Below, one piece after another: positions 13,559 through 19,334 of a stretch of DNA of 64,000 bases (the stretch's first letter is position 1; every line of letters begins with the position of its first letter). A model generated the notes under the pieces. That model made no database searches. It saw nothing but the letters and a program-made list of their open reading frames with translations, and was not told where the DNA came from. The translations under genes were made by a program, and so were the position numbers. The DNA is from Escherichia phage VTCCBPA_211, in the sequence record PP989838.1; one strand, written 5' to 3'.

Positions 13559-14109
13559 AGAAAAAGAAGAAAGTGTTTGCATTCGATATCGAGAGTAATG
13601 CACTGTACGATGACATAACTAAAGTATGGTGTATTTATATCTTCGATGTTGAAACTGGTGAAAGGTGGGGCTATCGGCCTCACCAAATTGAAGATGGGAT
13701 TCGTAAACTTACAGAAGCAGATGTACTGGTGGGTCACAATATTATTGACTTCGACCTTTGTGCTCTGAAGAAGATGTATCCCAATCTGATTAACTATCGT
13801 TTTAACGTCTTCGACACTTTATGTCTTAGTCGATATCTTAAACCTGACCGTATTGGTGACAGTCCTGAGTATCCGAAAGGCGACCCTAGACGTGGCCCAA
13901 GAGGTCATGGTTTGAAGCAGTGGGGTGAGTTCTTAGGAGAGCTTAAGGGCGATTATGGTGAGCAAGAGGAAGCATGGGATGCTTTCACTGAAGATATGTT
14001 TACTTATTGTGAACAGGACGTTAACTTAACTGTTAAGGTTTATCTTTTCTTGTGTGAGCTCACGGGATTTGACCCTTACGACCCACCTTCATTATATTGG
14101 AAAATGTAA
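13552..14109 (+). CDS. DNA polymerase I family 3'-5' exonuclease domain protein (separately encoded)
   Basis: Exo I FDIESN, Exo [12 protein letters not shown], Exo III YCEQDV; collinear with the T7 DNA polymerase N-terminus; ends in a stop after the exo domain. Confidence 0.75.
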
Positions 14110-14110
14110 A

Positions 14111-15481
14111 ATGATTGTTATCCCGATTAACCAAATTGAAGATAAGGTTGCTCAACAACCTGATATCACTGTTGGTCGTCACTTCATTGAACAGTTGATT
14201 AACAACAATTTAGTTCCAGACGGTATCTGTCCCATCATTACTGGTGGGGCTGTTCGTGATGCTGTTCTTAACAATATAGCACCACATGACATTGATATCT
14301 TTATTGTCAGAGGGCAGCTTCCTGCTGGTAGAAACACTTTCACATCAACTGACCGTTGGCAAGCTCTTGGAAGAGAGATTGAAAGTAATGTGAAGGAATG
14401 GCTAGAGTCGCAAGATATTGAGTATTCATCACTTCTTGCTGAAGCTACAAACGAATCCTATGCGGGGGGTTCTCAATTAACATTCACTGATATTATTGAG
14501 TTTCAGTGGAATGGGGTTCGTATCCAATTCATGTTTAATTATCCTACTTCTATTGAAGAGATATTGGATAATTTTCCTATGATGTGCCGTGGTGCGATGA
14601 CTCTTGACAACCTATTCATGACTCCTCATGGATATTTGGCTATGACCGCTCCTTGCCCGGTGGTTGTTTCTAGTCGTGAAATCAGATACGTTCACAAAAA
14701 GTGGCCTAATTCACAAGTGTTAAGATTCTCAGCTCCATCTGTTGCATATCAATATATGGCCCAAACTCGATACCTTCCTACACCTCAGCCAGTTAGTCAT
14801 CTGGTTAGTGGATTAGGTCAGGTTTCTCTTATTGAGGATACAACAAGTGCTCAATATTGTGTTAACCGAGACATGAGTCTATTCTTTGGAATCCCTTATG
14901 AAGAGATTCTATTAATGTCAAGCGTTCACGGGTCTGGTCAGATTAGTGCGTATTGGTCTGAAGGGTTGACAAATTTAACGACTAACACGGGTGGTGATCT
15001 GCTTGGTCGAGAAGATGAACCTAACCGACACAATGCAATTGAAGGGGTTTTTGTAGCCCCTGCAATGCGTAGAGCACAAGAGTCACGAAGAGTAAGCCCT
15101 ACTCGTAGAGCATCTTTTGAAGAAGCTCTCGGTGTTACAAGTGATTCTATGGAGCGATGGATGGCTAGACCCTCTCGTGGTCGACCAAATGGTTTAACTG
15201 TTAGCGCACGTCAGTTCTCTGGTCAGGGTTTTGCTGTCGGTGATATCAACGCACCTGTTAGGGCTGTGTGGACTGATGAAGGTGTGGCCCAAGATGTGGT
15301 AGGCAGTCTCTCCGATCTTGATACTCCTTCTCATGAGGAACTCGCTGAGGCTGTCAGCCGCAATCTCGCTGATCGCTTTATTACTAACAACCCTGAAGTA
15401 TTAGAACCTCAAACCCGTACAGTTCGGTTTGCTGATGAAGCGGGTCGTGGAATCTCTTTTGACGTAGAAACAAATAACTAA
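14111..15481 (+). CDS. nucleotidyltransferase (CCA-adding enzyme / poly(A) polymerase head-domain-like)
   Basis: GGAVRDAVL...PHDIDIFIV matches the GGxVRD...DxD signature of class-II tRNA nucleotidyltransferases; ATG at 14111. Confidence 0.45.
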   Translation: MIVIPINQIEDKVAQQPDITVGRHFIEQLINNNLVPDGICPIITGGAVRDAVLNNIAPHDIDIFIVRGQLPAGRNTFTSTDRWQALGREIESNVKEWLESQDIEYSSLLAEATNESYAGGSQLTFTDIIEFQWNGVRIQFMFNYPTSIEEILDNFPMMCRGAMTLDNLFMTPHGYLAMTAPCPVVVSSREIRYVHKKWPNSQVLRFSAPSVAYQYMAQTRYLPTPQPVSHLVSGLGQVSLIEDTTSAQYCVNRDMSLFFGIPYEEILLMSSVHGSGQISAYWSEGLTNLTTNTGGDLLGREDEPNRHNAIEGVFVAPAMRRAQESRRVSPTRRASFEEALGVTSDSMERWMARPSRGRPNGLTVSARQFSGQGFAVGDINAPVRAVWTDEGVAQDVVGSLSDLDTPSHEELAEAVSRNLADRFITNNPEVLEPQTRTVRFADEAGRGISFDVETNN

Positions 15482-15490
15482 GGAATAAGA

Positions 15491-16024
15491 ATGAGTTTAC
15501 TAGGAAGTATTGAACTGCACGATGTAATTGACAATGGCTATCTGAATGCGGAGCATAAATATGTTAACGCTGCTAGTGTGGATATCCGTATTGGTGATAC
15601 TATCCTTGTTGAAGAACAGGCTGATGGCATCGTTGATATTGATGCGAAAGAGAATCTTCAGTGGAAGGAAGTAAAGATTCCTGAAGAGGGTTTGGTTATC
15701 ACTCCGGGTCAGTTCTTCTTGGCTCACTCCATGGAGGAGTTTAATCTTCCAGATAACATCTCAAGTCTGTTTGTCCTACGTTCATCTATGGCTCGTTGTG
15801 GTTTGAACCACCTCCACGCCGGGTGGGCAGACGCAGGGTTTAACAGCAGTAAGCTGACATTTGAGTTCCATAACGTAACCAAGCATCATAGCTTACGAGT
15901 TCGTGCTGGTATGCGTGTTGGTCAGATGGTGATGTTTGAGCACTCTCATGCAGGGGAACATTCCTATGCAGTGAAGGGTCGTTATAATAACTCTGAAGGT
16001 GTAGTTGCATCTAAAGGTGTGTAA
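15491..16024 (+). CDS. dcd: dCTP deaminase family protein
   Basis: SVDIRIG, LRSSMARCGL, GWADAGFNSSKLTFEFHN, GMRVGQMVMFE and C-terminal VVASKGV align with E. coli Dcd. Confidence 0.65.
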   Translation: MSLLGSIELHDVIDNGYLNAEHKYVNAASVDIRIGDTILVEEQADGIVDIDAKENLQWKEVKIPEEGLVITPGQFFLAHSMEEFNLPDNISSLFVLRSSMARCGLNHLHAGWADAGFNSSKLTFEFHNVTKHHSLRVRAGMRVGQMVMFEHSHAGEHSYAVKGRYNNSEGVVASKGV

Positions 16025-16231
16025 ATGACTGAAGAAGAGTTCCAAGAACTGAAAGGTTTGACTACCGAGGTTCAATTAAAAGCTATGACATTTGGTCGAG
16101 CATGTCATCGATTTGATACTTGTGATGAAAGCAGTAAAGAAGCTTGTAAGAGTTATATGGATAAGAAGCACCTTGAATGGGGTAAAGCTTCTAATGATCT
16201 TTATGACTACATGAAGGGTTTAGTAAAATGA
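16025..16231 (+). CDS. hypothetical protein (68 aa)
   Basis: ORF. Confidence 0.35.
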   Translation: MTEEEFQELKGLTTEVQLKAMTFGRACHRFDTCDESSKEACKSYMDKKHLEWGKASNDLYDYMKGLVK

Positions 16232-16425
16232 AAAAGTGGATTGTTCGTGTACATGATAACACGACTGGAGAGTTAGTAGCTGTAGATTTTGTTAATACTC
16301 GAGACCACGCCCGTAGGGTCAAAAACCAATACAAGTCTACTTTTAGACTCAATAAGGTTACAATAGGAAAAGCTTTCGTAAACAGTGAAGGTGCTTTTCT
16401 TTCCAATAGTAAGGTTTATTATTAA
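16228..16425 (+). CDS. small paralogous protein family member A (65 aa)
   Basis: Shares W..., TR..AR..KK and C-terminal YY pattern with the next two ORFs and with 18319..18528. Confidence 0.45.
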   Translation: MKKWIVRVHDNTTGELVAVDFVNTRDHARRVKNQYKSTFRLNKVTIGKAFVNSEGAFLSNSKVYY

Positions 16426-16634
16426 TGAGACCAATCACTATGAGAAAATTTTGGTTAGCAAAGATTGAGTGGGCATCAGGTGGCATGACTATGACTGCAC
16501 TACCCACTCGCCAACAAGCTCGAGATTTTAAAAAGACTATGCTTACTGGTGACGTGGTCAATAGTATCAGTATCCATAAGGCCAAGGAGTATTCTTCTGG
16601 TCGTGTTTATATCAGCGGAAAGGTGCATTACTAA
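16425..16634 (+). CDS. small paralogous protein family member B (69 aa)
   Basis: Paralog pattern; start overlaps upstream stop (TAATGA). Confidence 0.45.
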   Translation: MRPITMRKFWLAKIEWASGGMTMTALPTRQQARDFKKTMLTGDVVNSISIHKAKEYSSGRVYISGKVHY

Positions 16635-16843
16635 TGAAAAAGATGTGGGCTATTCATGTTGTTTGGGATCTTGAGCAACACATGAGAAAAGATAGCATCA
16701 AATTGTTTGACACTCGCAAAGAGGCTCGTATTGCTAAGAAACAGTTGAAGACTCTGGGCACAATAGTAAAAAGCGCTGACATACATCGCTGGTATGAAGG
16801 CCCTAACACTGGTTCTTTTATGTCTAAAGTAATTTACTACTGA
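16634..16843 (+). CDS. small paralogous protein family member C (69 aa)
   Basis: Paralog pattern; coupled start. Confidence 0.45.
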   Translation: MKKMWAIHVVWDLEQHMRKDSIKLFDTRKEARIAKKQLKTLGTIVKSADIHRWYEGPNTGSFMSKVIYY

Positions 16844-16867
16844 TTGGTAGTAGATATGATAACTCTC

Positions 16868-16876
16868 AAATGTATA
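16868..16876 (+). promoter_or_regulatory. promoter-like motif AAATGTATA (near-consensus TAATGTATA)
   Basis: In intergenic region about 40 nt upstream of the ATG at 16916. Confidence 0.4.
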
Positions 16877-16915
16877 TAGAGTACAATAAGAATTTGTATT
16901 TTACAGGAGAGAGTT

Positions 16916-17245
16916 ATGTTAGATTTGAGTAAAGTGGCCCCGCCCACTGAAGAGATTACAAAATCCAAGGTGATGCAACAGTTTTATCATCGTGATATGC
17001 TTGGTCGCTTTATCAAGAATCGTGATGTTGTTGCTTGGTCTATTGGTAATCAGGGGTATCTGTTGAAGGTTCTTCAGGTTACAGGTTCAACTGCTAAGCG
17101 AGTTAAGGTGTATGACCCTGAAATGGGGCGTTCTAAGTCAGTAGACCCACAGAACTGCATCGTAATTACCCAGCAGGTAATGGATAATATTGCACGTAAC
17201 GTTGCTAACTCAGTTGAACTTGATGGAGAAAACCCAAATGCATAA
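16916..17245 (+). CDS. hypothetical protein (109 aa)
   Basis: ORF downstream of a promoter-like AAATGTATA motif. Confidence 0.4.
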   Translation: MLDLSKVAPPTEEITKSKVMQQFYHRDMLGRFIKNRDVVAWSIGNQGYLLKVLQVTGSTAKRVKVYDPEMGRSKSVDPQNCIVITQQVMDNIARNVANSVELDGENPNA

Positions 17246-17801
17246 GAATGTCTTTGATTTACCTGAGATTGGTCGTGACAGTTATAGCATGTTAGACCGG
17301 TCCGACCTATCAATCTCTCGCCTTGAAACGATGCAAGGTATGATTAGTGGAAACAGCCTAGAACACATCCTGAGCTGCTTACAAGCTAACATGGAACTCT
17401 TGCATATCAAAGCTAAAAACTACCACTGGAACGTCTCTGGTGCAGGATTTCAGGGTGTTCATGGTATGTTTGACGAGCTGGAAGATTACGCACGACAGGT
17501 AGGAGATCGTATTGCTGAACGTATGCGTTACCACTGTGTTAAAGTGGATGCTACAGCAGCTAACTACCTCTCTCATGCTTGGTTCTCAGAGGGTAATGCT
17601 GATCTAGACATGGACGGTATGCTCTCTGATATGTGCATGACCTTGATGTGTATTATTGAGAAGATGGATGAGTTTGATGGCGATTTAGCCACCTACCCTG
17701 TCGATCAGAGTATGCTTCAAGAAATTAATGAAGGTCTTGGCAAGTATTGCTACTTCGTCAAGAGCAACATGTCCCACTCAAGTGGTGATGTGTCTTACTA
17801 A
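17238..17801 (+). CDS. Dps-like ferritin-fold protein
   Basis: LHIKAKNYHWNVSGAGFQGVHGMFDELEDYARQVGDRIAERM matches the Dps signature; ATG at 17238 with GGAGA SD. Confidence 0.6.
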   Translation: MHKNVFDLPEIGRDSYSMLDRSDLSISRLETMQGMISGNSLEHILSCLQANMELLHIKAKNYHWNVSGAGFQGVHGMFDELEDYARQVGDRIAERMRYHCVKVDATAANYLSHAWFSEGNADLDMDGMLSDMCMTLMCIIEKMDEFDGDLATYPVDQSMLQEINEGLGKYCYFVKSNMSHSSGDVSY

Positions 17802-17861
17802 AACCTCCGCCCTGTCTCCTAACCCGAGGTGGGGCGAACTTATTTATAAGGATATAGATAT

Positions 17862-18041
17862 ATGTTATCAGCAATCGTATGGGGTATTTGGGCTATCTTT
17901 ATTGGTGGTGGTATTTATTGGGCTTCTGGTAAGCTTATTGAAGAAACCCCTGATAAGAAAGGTGAGATTCAAACAGCATCAACTATCATGGTTATCGTAG
18001 CTGTTGTTATCCCATTCCTGCTTCACCTCCTGACTGCATAA
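17862..18041 (+). CDS. small two-helix membrane protein (59 aa)
   Basis: Two hydrophobic segments (AIVWGIWAIFIGGGIYWA and IMVIVAVVIPFLLHLL); preferred over the overlapping 17728..18000 frame, which runs into the Dps gene. Confidence 0.3.
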   Translation: MLSAIVWGIWAIFIGGGIYWASGKLIEETPDKKGEIQTASTIMVIVAVVIPFLLHLLTA

Positions 18042-18049
18042 GGATTTAC

Positions 18050-18322
18050 ATGACTAAAGTAATTAAGTTTTATAGTGATCAGTGTGCTCCATGTAAAGCA
18101 ATGGCTCCTACCTTTGAGAAGGTTGTTAAGGAGTTTGATGTAGAAGTGGAAGAGATTAACATCCTTGAAGGTGATGGTCGTGAACAAGCTGTTAAGTATG
18201 GTGTACGAAGTATCCCTGCTTTCGTTGTACCTGACCGTAACAGTGGTGCACACTACAGCCTCTCTGGTATGCAGACCGAAGCAAACCTGAAAGCATTCTT
18301 AACTACTGCCCTAGGTGTTTGA
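18050..18322 (+). CDS. thioredoxin
   Basis: CAPC active-site motif in a thioredoxin-sized protein (90 aa). Confidence 0.7.
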   Translation: MTKVIKFYSDQCAPCKAMAPTFEKVVKEFDVEVEEINILEGDGREQAVKYGVRSIPAFVVPDRNSGAHYSLSGMQTEANLKAFLTTALGV

Positions 18323-18528
18323 TTATGAAAAAATATTGGACGGTGGTATATTACCTCTACCAAGACCCGGCTATACCTGTTACAGAGCACTTTGCTACTC
18401 GTAAAGATGCTCGCCGTTTTAAGAAGGCTCTTAAGATGGCCCCAAAGATTTATAGTAAAGTAAGCTTACATAAATCAACATTGTCAGAGATGGGAACCTT
18501 AGTGGTTTATTATGTAAAAGAATATTAA
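18319..18528 (+). CDS. small paralogous protein family member D (69 aa)
   Basis: Same pattern as 16228-16843 ORFs (TRKDARRFKK ... VVYY). Confidence 0.45.
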   Translation: MIMKKYWTVVYYLYQDPAIPVTEHFATRKDARRFKKALKMAPKIYSKVSLHKSTLSEMGTLVVYYVKEY

Positions 18529-18543
18529 TAAGGAAATTCACGG

Positions 18544-19200
18544 ATGAATGAACAATTACAAGCAACATTAATCGAAGCTATGGGAAGTGATCGTAGCGTA
18601 GTAAACGCAGCTCGAGTTTCCTTTGGCGTAACCCGTGAAGGTGATTTAAATGAACGTGATGAACGTCTCATCAACTTCCTCGCAAGAGAGAAGCATGTTA
18701 CTCCATTCCGACACCCACAAGTCAGTTTCCGATGCAAAGCACCTATCGCAATTGCGAGACAGTTGGGCAAGCATCAGGTTGGATTCTCGTGGAACGAAAT
18801 GTCCCGGCGGTATAAAGATGGAGCAGTTGAAGTCTTCATCCCTAAAGAGATTTTTGCGAGACCTTCGGACCTCCATGCAGGTTCAGGGGTTCAACTCATC
18901 GATGGAGAACGAGCTGAAGCGTTAATGTTGATTAATGATGCATATGAAGCTTCTCTAGCAGCATATGACAAGTTGATTGAATTCATTGCACCAGAGCAAG
19001 CTCGATTTGTTCTTCCTCAGGGGATGATCACTGAGTGGGTATGGACTGGTTCTTTGTATGGCTGGTTTGAGTTATGTCGTCAGCGACTCTCCTCTCACGC
19101 TCAATATGAAGTTCGAGTGTTTGCTAAATCTCTGGATGAAGAGATGGCTAAACTTTACCCAATCTCATGGGCAGCTCTGAAGAAAACTTTGGAGAATTAA
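18544..19200 (+). CDS. thyX: flavin-dependent thymidylate synthase ThyX
   Basis: ThyX-like architecture with an RQRLSSHAQ segment corresponding to the ThyX RHR...S motif. Confidence 0.65.
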   Translation: MNEQLQATLIEAMGSDRSVVNAARVSFGVTREGDLNERDERLINFLAREKHVTPFRHPQVSFRCKAPIAIARQLGKHQVGFSWNEMSRRYKDGAVEVFIPKEIFARPSDLHAGSGVQLIDGERAEALMLINDAYEASLAAYDKLIEFIAPEQARFVLPQGMITEWVWTGSLYGWFELCRQRLSSHAQYEVRVFAKSLDEEMAKLYPISWAALKKTLEN

Positions 19201-19334
19201 TGTTGGAAGAAGATGACGATGTGTTCTGCACCAAGTGTGGGATGACAGTTGATGATGCATATGACCCAAGTGTAGAAATCTGCCCTTGTTGTGGAGTATG
19301 TGAATATTGCTGTTCCCACAACTCAGAGGATTAG
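19200..19334 (+). CDS. small Cys-rich zinc-ribbon protein (44 aa)
   Basis: CTKCG ... CPCCGVCEYCC; start overlaps thyX stop. Confidence 0.3.
   Translation: MLEEDDDVFCTKCGMTVDDAYDPSVEICPCCGVCEYCCSHNSED

Follow-up and report, generated by a model that had tools for sequence, protein, structure and literature searches.

The question raised by positions 16,228 to 18,528 of Escherichia phage VTCCBPA_211 (sequence record PP989838.1) is whether four small open reading frames (ORFs) found there, three in tandem and one distal, are true copies of one gene, and what their products might do. Throughout, the window means the whole 64,000-nt stretch of this phage that was analysed, and the four proteins are termed P1 to P4. 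The original prediction, made from the sequence alone, had read them as small paralogous proteins, and the ORFs were confirmed on the plus strand as follows (lengths in amino acids, aa):

16228..16425, + strand: P1, 65 aa; orthologue of phiEco32 gp71; match to phrog_4939 at E 1.8e-26
16425..16634, + strand: P2, 69 aa (or 64 aa from 16440); orthologue of phiEco32 gp70; match to phrog_4939 at E 5.1e-28
16634..16843, + strand: P3, 69 aa; orthologue of phiEco32 gp69; match to phrog_4939 at E 6.3e-28; followed by a promoter gap
18325..18528, + strand: P4, 67 aa from ATG 18325 (69 aa from TTG 18319); distal copy; match to phrog_4939 at E 8.5e-26

All four proteins matched PHROG 4939, which is labelled as of unknown function, over profile positions 1-67 of 67 (E 1e-26 to 1e-28). 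Because the four paralogue types match one profile end to end, PHROGs had grouped them as one family beforehand. In Smith-Waterman comparisons with 2000 shuffles, the z-scores were 8.2 (P1-P2), 5.9 (P1-P4), 8.9 (P2-P3), 7.4 (P2-P4) and 9.9 (P3-P4), and the only weak pair was P1-P3 (z 2.8, a score reached by 42 of the 2000 shuffles). Circularity was avoided by a leave-one-clade-out test, in which a hidden Markov model (HMM) built from the orthologues of three clades was searched against the six-frame translation of the window (1297 segments). The results showed recovery of the omitted copy in every case (P1, E 1.8e-9; P2, 1.7e-11; P3, 4.4e-15; P4, 7.8e-9), with the best noise match at E of at least 0.25, and the HMM search for a fifth family copy across the 64,000 nt found none. 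The similarity therefore extends beyond composition, the HMM E-values and shuffle z-scores lying far above chance. A merely compositional likeness, or ORFs that are not genes, could draw on the P1-P3 pair taken by itself, but this explanation is already refuted by the leave-one-clade-out E-values (2e-9 to 4e-15), by the independent grouping of the four in PHROGs, by orthologues conserved with a ratio of nonsynonymous to synonymous substitution (dN/dS) below 1 and by confident AlphaFold2 models, and we assign it practically no chance. These results demonstrate that P1-P4 are four true, anciently diverged paralogues of one lineage-restricted family.

We then compared the residues that define the family. 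In the four-way alignment, M1, K3, W4, T24, R25, A28, R29, K32 and the terminal Y were invariant; among 48 diverse members, W5, R26 and R30 were invariant, and T25, A29, K33 and the C-terminal Y were conserved in at least 90%. The predicted conserved Trp was thus present in all four window copies and all 48 diverse members. The proposed core T-R-x-x-A-R-x-x-K-K held through its first K, the second being N in P1, so that the motif is T-R-x-x-A-R-x-x-K. Likewise, the last residue of the proposed C-terminal YY was invariant, but the pair itself occurred only in P1 and P3; P2 ends in HY and P4 in EY, with a YY located 4 residues upstream of the EY end. Members are single-domain proteins of 64-75 aa, strongly basic (isoelectric point (pI) 9.8-10.8, net charge +7 to +10), with 7-11 aromatic residues. 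Judged by its match to the family N-terminus and by annotated orthologues, the start of P4 is most likely ATG 18325 (MKKYW, 67 aa), with TTG 18319 as an extension. The internal ATG at 16440 (MRKFW, 64 aa), which would give the family-conserved N-terminus, may be the start of P2; in relatives with an HNH gene before P2, the MRKFW-type start is the sole one available.

Structures were modelled with ColabFold for P3 (32-sequence alignment) and P4 (48-sequence alignment). The P3 model (predicted local distance difference test (pLDDT) 87.5, predicted template-modelling score (pTM) 0.70) had strands at 2-11 and 20-25, a helix at 28-40 and strands at 45-56 and 60-63, and the P4 model (pLDDT 93.9, pTM 0.79) had strands at 2-11 and 14-23, a helix at 26-37 and strands at 43-53 and 59-65. 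The confidently predicted fold combines one helix with an antiparallel sheet of four strands, arranged beta-beta-alpha-beta-beta. Models of other paralogue types in BFVD superposed at template-modelling (TM) scores of 0.64-0.89. Scans of the four proteins against Pfam, NCBIfam and PADLOC, and of the 48 members against Pfam, gave nothing significant; PDB sequence-profile searches with two family alignments gave no match or non-significant ones (best, the RNA recognition motif (RRM) of CELF1, E 0.18), and the best Foldseek match in the PDB was also not significant (E 0.24). Membership of the RRM family was rejected in view of the topology, the E-value of the CELF1 match and the absence of any Pfam RRM match at E <= 1 among the 48 members. 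A likeness to DUF2188 (pattern W-x-V ... T-x-x-E-A ... I-H) was not recovered by Pfam at E <= 1 and is not claimed. A BFVD fold match in Salmonella phage SE131 was set aside, there being no sequence support: the family HMM found nothing in the SE131 locus, and both small ORFs translated there, gp092 (acidic) and gp094, were without the family motif.

To place the family in its genomic context, we searched window positions 15400-19300 against a collection of 50,697 phage records, on which all record counts below are based. Escherichia phage NJ01 matched at 96.4% identity, as did 97 further records at unspecified levels; all 98 come from phages of Escherichia or Shigella in the phiEco32 group. 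The window itself is a phiEco32-like genome (Caudoviricetes; Gordonclarkvirinae; Kuravirus). In these phages the family occupies two fixed slots of a replication and nucleotide-metabolism module. Slot A lies between the dCTP deaminase gene and the 109-aa and Dps genes and holds P1-P3, and slot B lies between thioredoxin and ThyX and holds P4. The surrounding features of the window are:

14054-15481: nucleotidyltransferase gene, upstream of dCTP deaminase
15491..16024, + strand: dCTP deaminase (DCD; annotation, PF22769 in relatives), upstream anchor of slot A
16025..16231, + strand: 68-aa gene h68 (phrog_2347), not a family member, no family-HMM match
16833..16876, + strand: promoter region inside the 72-nt gap 3' of P3, with a sigma70-like site and a gp36-sigma motif
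16916..17245, + strand: gene of a conserved 109-aa protein (phrog_10984), downstream anchor of slot A, followed by the Dps/ferritin-like gene
17236-17801: Dps/ferritin-like gene
17862-18041: small membrane protein gene
18050..18322, + strand: thioredoxin (Trx), upstream anchor of slot B
18544..19200, + strand: ThyX thymidylate synthase, downstream anchor of slot B

A further variable slot of the module was seen between the small membrane protein gene and thioredoxin, where NJ01, ECBP2, SU7, Bas88, 4E8 and O18-011 carry two additional small genes of 61 and 58 aa (NJ01_079 and NJ01_078; positions 4146-4520 of the NJ01 locus) that are missing from the window (18042-18049), phiEco32 and Paul.

The genes of slot A are tightly packed. 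The string dCTP deaminase - h68 - P1 - P2 - P3, part of which is headed by h68 (variably present or absent among relatives), has zero intergenic space: ATGA at 16228-16231 joins the end of the 68-aa gene to the P1 start, TAATGA at 16423-16428 the P1 stop to the P2 start, and CTAATG at 16631-16636 the P2 stop to the P3 start. A Shine-Dalgarno-like AAGG lies 10 nt ahead of the P2 and P3 starts (16411-16414 and 16620-16623), embedded in the codons AAG GTN that encode K-V in (S/G)-K-V-x-Y, the conserved C-terminus of P1 and P2; P3, which has no coupled gene downstream, encodes K-V as AAA GTA. Part of the apparent protein conservation at the C-terminus may thus be a translation signal. Both overlaps named in the original prediction were therefore present, and the translational coupling of P1-P3 that it deduced from them is plausible in view of the overlapping stop and start codons and the embedded AAGG.

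The 72-nt gap after P3 contained a sigma70-like site (16833-16860) and, at 16869-16876, AATGTATA, the core of the phage gp36 sigma motif described upstream of CDS68 in phiEco32 and SU10 (PMC4281155). This core occurred 7 times in the window (16869, 21761, 28231, 28304, 37927, 43182 and 54808) against 2.6 expected, and none of 100 shuffles reached 7. The first gp36-type motif, a middle promoter motif, comes directly after P1-P3 and ahead of P4; P1-P3 thus close one transcription unit at its 3' end, and P4 belongs to the next. A terminator-like hairpin (11 pairs, 7 of them G-C, then a T-rich tail) was noted at 17808-17836, directly 3' of the Dps-like gene; as it stands between the middle promoter and P4, expression of P4 may need read-through or another promoter. 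The description of the four as early proteins is doubtful, given their position among replication and nucleotide-metabolism genes, the location of P4 past the gp36-type motif and the disagreement between papers: CDS 69-125 were called early by homology, with CDS 69-71 as the final genes of the early unit (PMC4281155), the whole replication module was assigned to the middle class and the far-end block to the early class (PMC9965538), and gp79 was termed a middle gene (PMC8948821). In the proteome of SU10, no paralogue was detected.

We next determined how widely the family occurs. A word-indexed search of 5.8 billion proteins with a four-sequence profile gave 95 clusters, all of 64-87 aa and all of the four types. 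An exhaustive HMMER search with a 32-sequence profile, covering 1.84 billion cluster representatives, gave only 29 clusters at E <= 1e-3, all single-domain and 47-79 aa in length, and the absence of the family from bacterial genomes is judged from this exhaustive search. A scan of IMG/VR found 3 loci only, all in phages already known. Each distant member with a readable contig, metagenomic phages included, belonged to a phage with this module and lay in one of its two slots, which indicates that the family does not extend beyond the phiEco32-like lineage and a few related phages. One of the latter, Aeromonas phage LAh_8, had a single member (E 1.3e-8), located two genes ahead of the thymidylate synthase gene. 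Two remote members (P0109 and P0112) had no tblastn match in the phage collection.

Copy number varied within this narrow range. P2 was found in all 98 records matching the 3.9-kb region, P3 in 94 and P1 in 64. P4 was found in 21 at E <= 1e-5, which is a lower bound because an allele about 35% identical escapes the search; it was absent from phiEco32, IMEP8, SU7, EP335 and Bas89. Slot A held 1-3 or more copies and slot B 0-2, giving 1 to at least 4 per genome; certain metagenomic relatives had two slot-B copies or at least three slot-A copies, and Suseptimavirus was without P1. A 63-aa ORF ahead of the array in ECBP2 was considered as a further member and rejected, being a membrane protein. 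Genes of HNH homing endonucleases occupied the same slots in SU7, EP335, O18-011, FH3 and Bas89, with none there in the window, and in FH3 an HNH gene stood in place of P1. Their insertion points were exact, after dCTP deaminase and between thioredoxin and ThyX, and some were annotated as hypothetical or as 'baseplate wedge subunit'. In the relatives' loci they lie at:

L008, 5586-6077: HNH gene
L012, 5352-5834: HNH gene
L013, 2579-3088: HNH gene
L015, 2798-3253 and 5182-5652: HNH genes
L016, 2382-2891 and 5586-6077: HNH genes

The window copies were only 23-30% identical to one another. A neighbour-joining tree (49 members, 15 genomes) gave four clades that tracked genomic position and not genome, and each positional clade was monophyletic across Kuravirus, Nieuwekanaalvirus and Suseptimavirus (the last without P1). 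The duplications are therefore older than the split of these three genera, and the tandem amplification originally proposed does not hold as a recent expansion. Gene-wide dN/dS was calculated by the Nei-Gojobori method (NG86) from pairs with 0.05 < dS < 1.5. The values were 0.20 for P1, 0.32 for P2, 0.29 for P3 and 0.25 for P4, compared with 0.05 for dCTP deaminase, 0.05 for the 109-aa gene, 0.12 for thioredoxin and 0.08 for ThyX. Selection on P1-P4 is thus purifying and 3-6 times more relaxed than on the neighbouring enzymes; at the level of the whole gene, the diversifying selection that had been suggested was not found. Within clades, variation was located in three places: the turn between beta1 and beta2, the C-terminal end of the helix plus the loop after it, and the hairpin of beta3 and beta4. 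Both termini, the W and the T-R-x-x-A-R motif were fixed.

Judged by identity to the window, each gene fell into discrete classes of alleles (about 85-100%, 50-55% and 35-45%) that were freely combined between genomes. Phage 4E8, for example, had P1 at 54%, P2 at 53%, P3 at 93% and P4 at 37% identity, and KBNP1711 had 55, 53, 96 and 96%; the 109-aa gene between the slots was 91-100% identical throughout. Since Dps, DCD, Trx and ThyX likewise have allele classes, this mosaicism is a property of the module and is not specific to the family. The P1 allele of the window (16228-16422) had a best match of 92.3% in the phage collection and none at 95% or above, and P2, P3 and P4 were matched at 97-100%. 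The Dps-like gene (17236-17801), named 'integrase' in several records, had two very divergent allele classes in close relatives, one sharing 38-55% and the other 91-100% identity with the window, and its NG86 value of 1.8, probably an artefact of partial tblastn coordinates across these two alleles, was not interpreted.

With about 65 aa and no match to any catalytic family (Pfam, NCBIfam, PADLOC, PDB), the proteins look more like binders than enzymes. Our tentative preference is that P1-P4 have no enzymatic activity and bind a polyanion, nucleic acid being the most plausible one; we hold this reading possible rather than probable. The conserved layout comprises the Trp on strand 1, a helix N-cap Thr followed by Arg, Ala-Arg one turn on, Lys after another turn and the terminal Tyr. 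By the topology of the models, R26, R30 and K33 in the first turns of the helix would lie at one pole together with the N-terminal M-K-K and the variable beta3-beta4 hairpin, and the positive patch at that pole, reinforced by the helix dipole, would create a common binding site for a polyanion, the most plausible being DNA or RNA of the phage or its host that is handled in the course of replication. The core would be stabilised by W5, A29 and the terminal Tyr, with Ala29 and the hydrophobic residue three positions later facing the sheet. The clade-specific beta1-beta2 turn, alpha-beta3 loop and beta3-beta4 hairpin could give each paralogue its own partner or specificity, and the overlapping stop and start codons with their embedded Shine-Dalgarno sequences would link the amounts in which P1, P2 and P3 are made. 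Several points weigh against this reading. The shared pole of the basic residues was read from the topology of the models, a basic surface could equally bind an acidic protein, and variation in copy number with independently reassorting alleles is more typical of host-interaction genes than of core DNA-handling genes; moreover, the literature search found no paper discussing family members and no experimental study of any. A more specific form of DNA binding, in which the proteins are a small basic class that coats or marks phage DNA or blocks host nucleases and so explains the restriction resistance of Gordonclarkvirinae, is quite improbable; here the proteins would be made alongside the replication genes, and the paralogues and reassorting alleles would tune protection against different host nucleases.

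The functions suggested originally were anti-defence or host takeover, with each paralogue blocking a different host protein (a defence nuclease, toxin or enzyme) and diversifying in an arms race. The restriction of the family to one lineage, its variable copy number and its faster evolution relative to its neighbours fit an accessory or host-interaction role. The small size of the proteins, found in one phage lineage (29 clusters among 1.84 billion representatives), the 1 to at least 4 copies per genome with P4 in about 21 of 98 records, the dN/dS 3-6 times that of the flanking enzymes, and allele classes (about 90%, 50% and 35-45%) that reassort independently of each other and of the conserved 109-aa gene all point the same way, and Gordonclarkvirinae resist restriction-modification without a known inhibitor or DNA modification (PMC11990801). 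On the other hand, the gene-wide dN/dS is below 1, the paralogues are ancient with P2 and P3 essentially universal, the mosaicism is shared with Dps, DCD, Trx and ThyX, and the genes lie in the replication module, outside the variable far-end early block regarded as host takeover (PMC8948821, PMC9965538). The strong positive charge of the proteins also counts against inhibitors of this kind. DNA-mimic anti-restriction proteins are acidic, and with a family pI of 9.8-10.8 and a net charge of +7 to +10 an Ocr/ArdA-like DNA mimic was rejected. On balance we regard inhibitors of host proteins as a possibility, but a rather unlikely one.

Two further explanations start from the position of the genes. 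P1-P4 might be accessory or regulatory subunits of the flanking deoxynucleoside triphosphate (dNTP) enzymes (DCD, Trx, ThyX) or of a putative DNA-modification pathway encoded at the locus: both slots abut these enzymes in every relative examined, the single LAh_8 copy stands two genes ahead of thymidylate synthase, the stop/start overlaps run from dCTP deaminase into the string, and the BASEL authors raise the possibility that an unknown DNA modification, encoded at the locus of the nucleotidyltransferase and dCTP deaminase (window 14054-16024), is behind the restriction-modification resistance (PMC11990801). Adjacency is not independent evidence, however, because the whole module is syntenic in the lineage. 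P4 is absent in phiEco32, IMEP8 and others whose Trx and ThyX are 95-99% identical to those of the window, family alleles do not co-vary with those of DCD, Trx and ThyX, and HNH genes can intervene between enzyme and family member, all of which makes a subunit role unlikely. As an alternative, the family members might be selfish or filler cassettes in permissive slots that serve as homing-endonuclease sites, with little function or only that of disrupting endonuclease targets. The occurrence of HNH genes in exactly the same slots, the replacement of P1 in FH3 and the presence or absence of P1 and P4 among relatives are in keeping with this. Yet purifying selection, invariant residues kept across very divergent members, the universal retention of P2 and P3 and a confidently predicted fold speak strongly against it, slot B of ECBP2 holds a P4-type gene plus a further unnamed 155-aa ORF, and we consider mere filler very improbable indeed.

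The binding of nucleic acid or another polyanion thus remains our tentative preference, and the family offers a tractable handle on a group of coliphages that is common yet understudied, matters for phage therapy and shows an unexplained resistance to restriction (PMC11990801). Experiments are feasible because K-12-infecting isolates exist (BASEL Bas86-94). Should the proteins turn out to be ordinary accessories in DNA handling, the outcome would be a useful annotation for about 300 public genes and nothing more.

Compared with known systems, the family itself was already known as PHROG 4939, with members deposited as hypothetical; that entry matches all four window proteins and gives no description of function, fold, paralogy, slots or copy number. 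Deposited orthologues are either named 'hypothetical protein' or mislabelled, as with the P4 orthologue NJ01_076 (NJ01 locus 4797-5000), called a 'putative ABC transporter'. In the same locus, a 66-aa ORF (6535-6735) bears the name 'isoleucyl-tRNA synthetase'. No function was found in the literature for phiEco32 gp69-71. Among small single-domain inhibitors from phages, the T4 Dmd antitoxin, the anti-CRISPR AcrIIC3 and phi29-type p56 had no sequence similarity to the family, their scores being at background; p56 and similar DNA mimics are acidic, in contrast to the family pI of about 10. RRM and ferredoxin-like binders have the order beta-alpha-beta-beta-alpha-beta with RNP1 and RNP2 motifs, unlike the beta-beta-alpha-beta-beta arrangement here. 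The direct counterparts are phiEco32 gp71, gp70 and gp69 (phi32_71, phi32_70 and phi32_69), which are 86%, 84% and 96% identical to P1, P2 and P3 and keep the same order and overlaps, but phiEco32 has no P4 between its thioredoxin (gp65) and ThyX (gp64). The family occurs in no lineage but this one and, as a multi-copy family of small proteins specific to one lineage of virulent phages, is of an ordinary kind; such families are common and mostly uncharacterised, and this one is well defined by a confidently predicted fold without a solved relative, a short basic motif, four ancient subtypes and two fixed slots.

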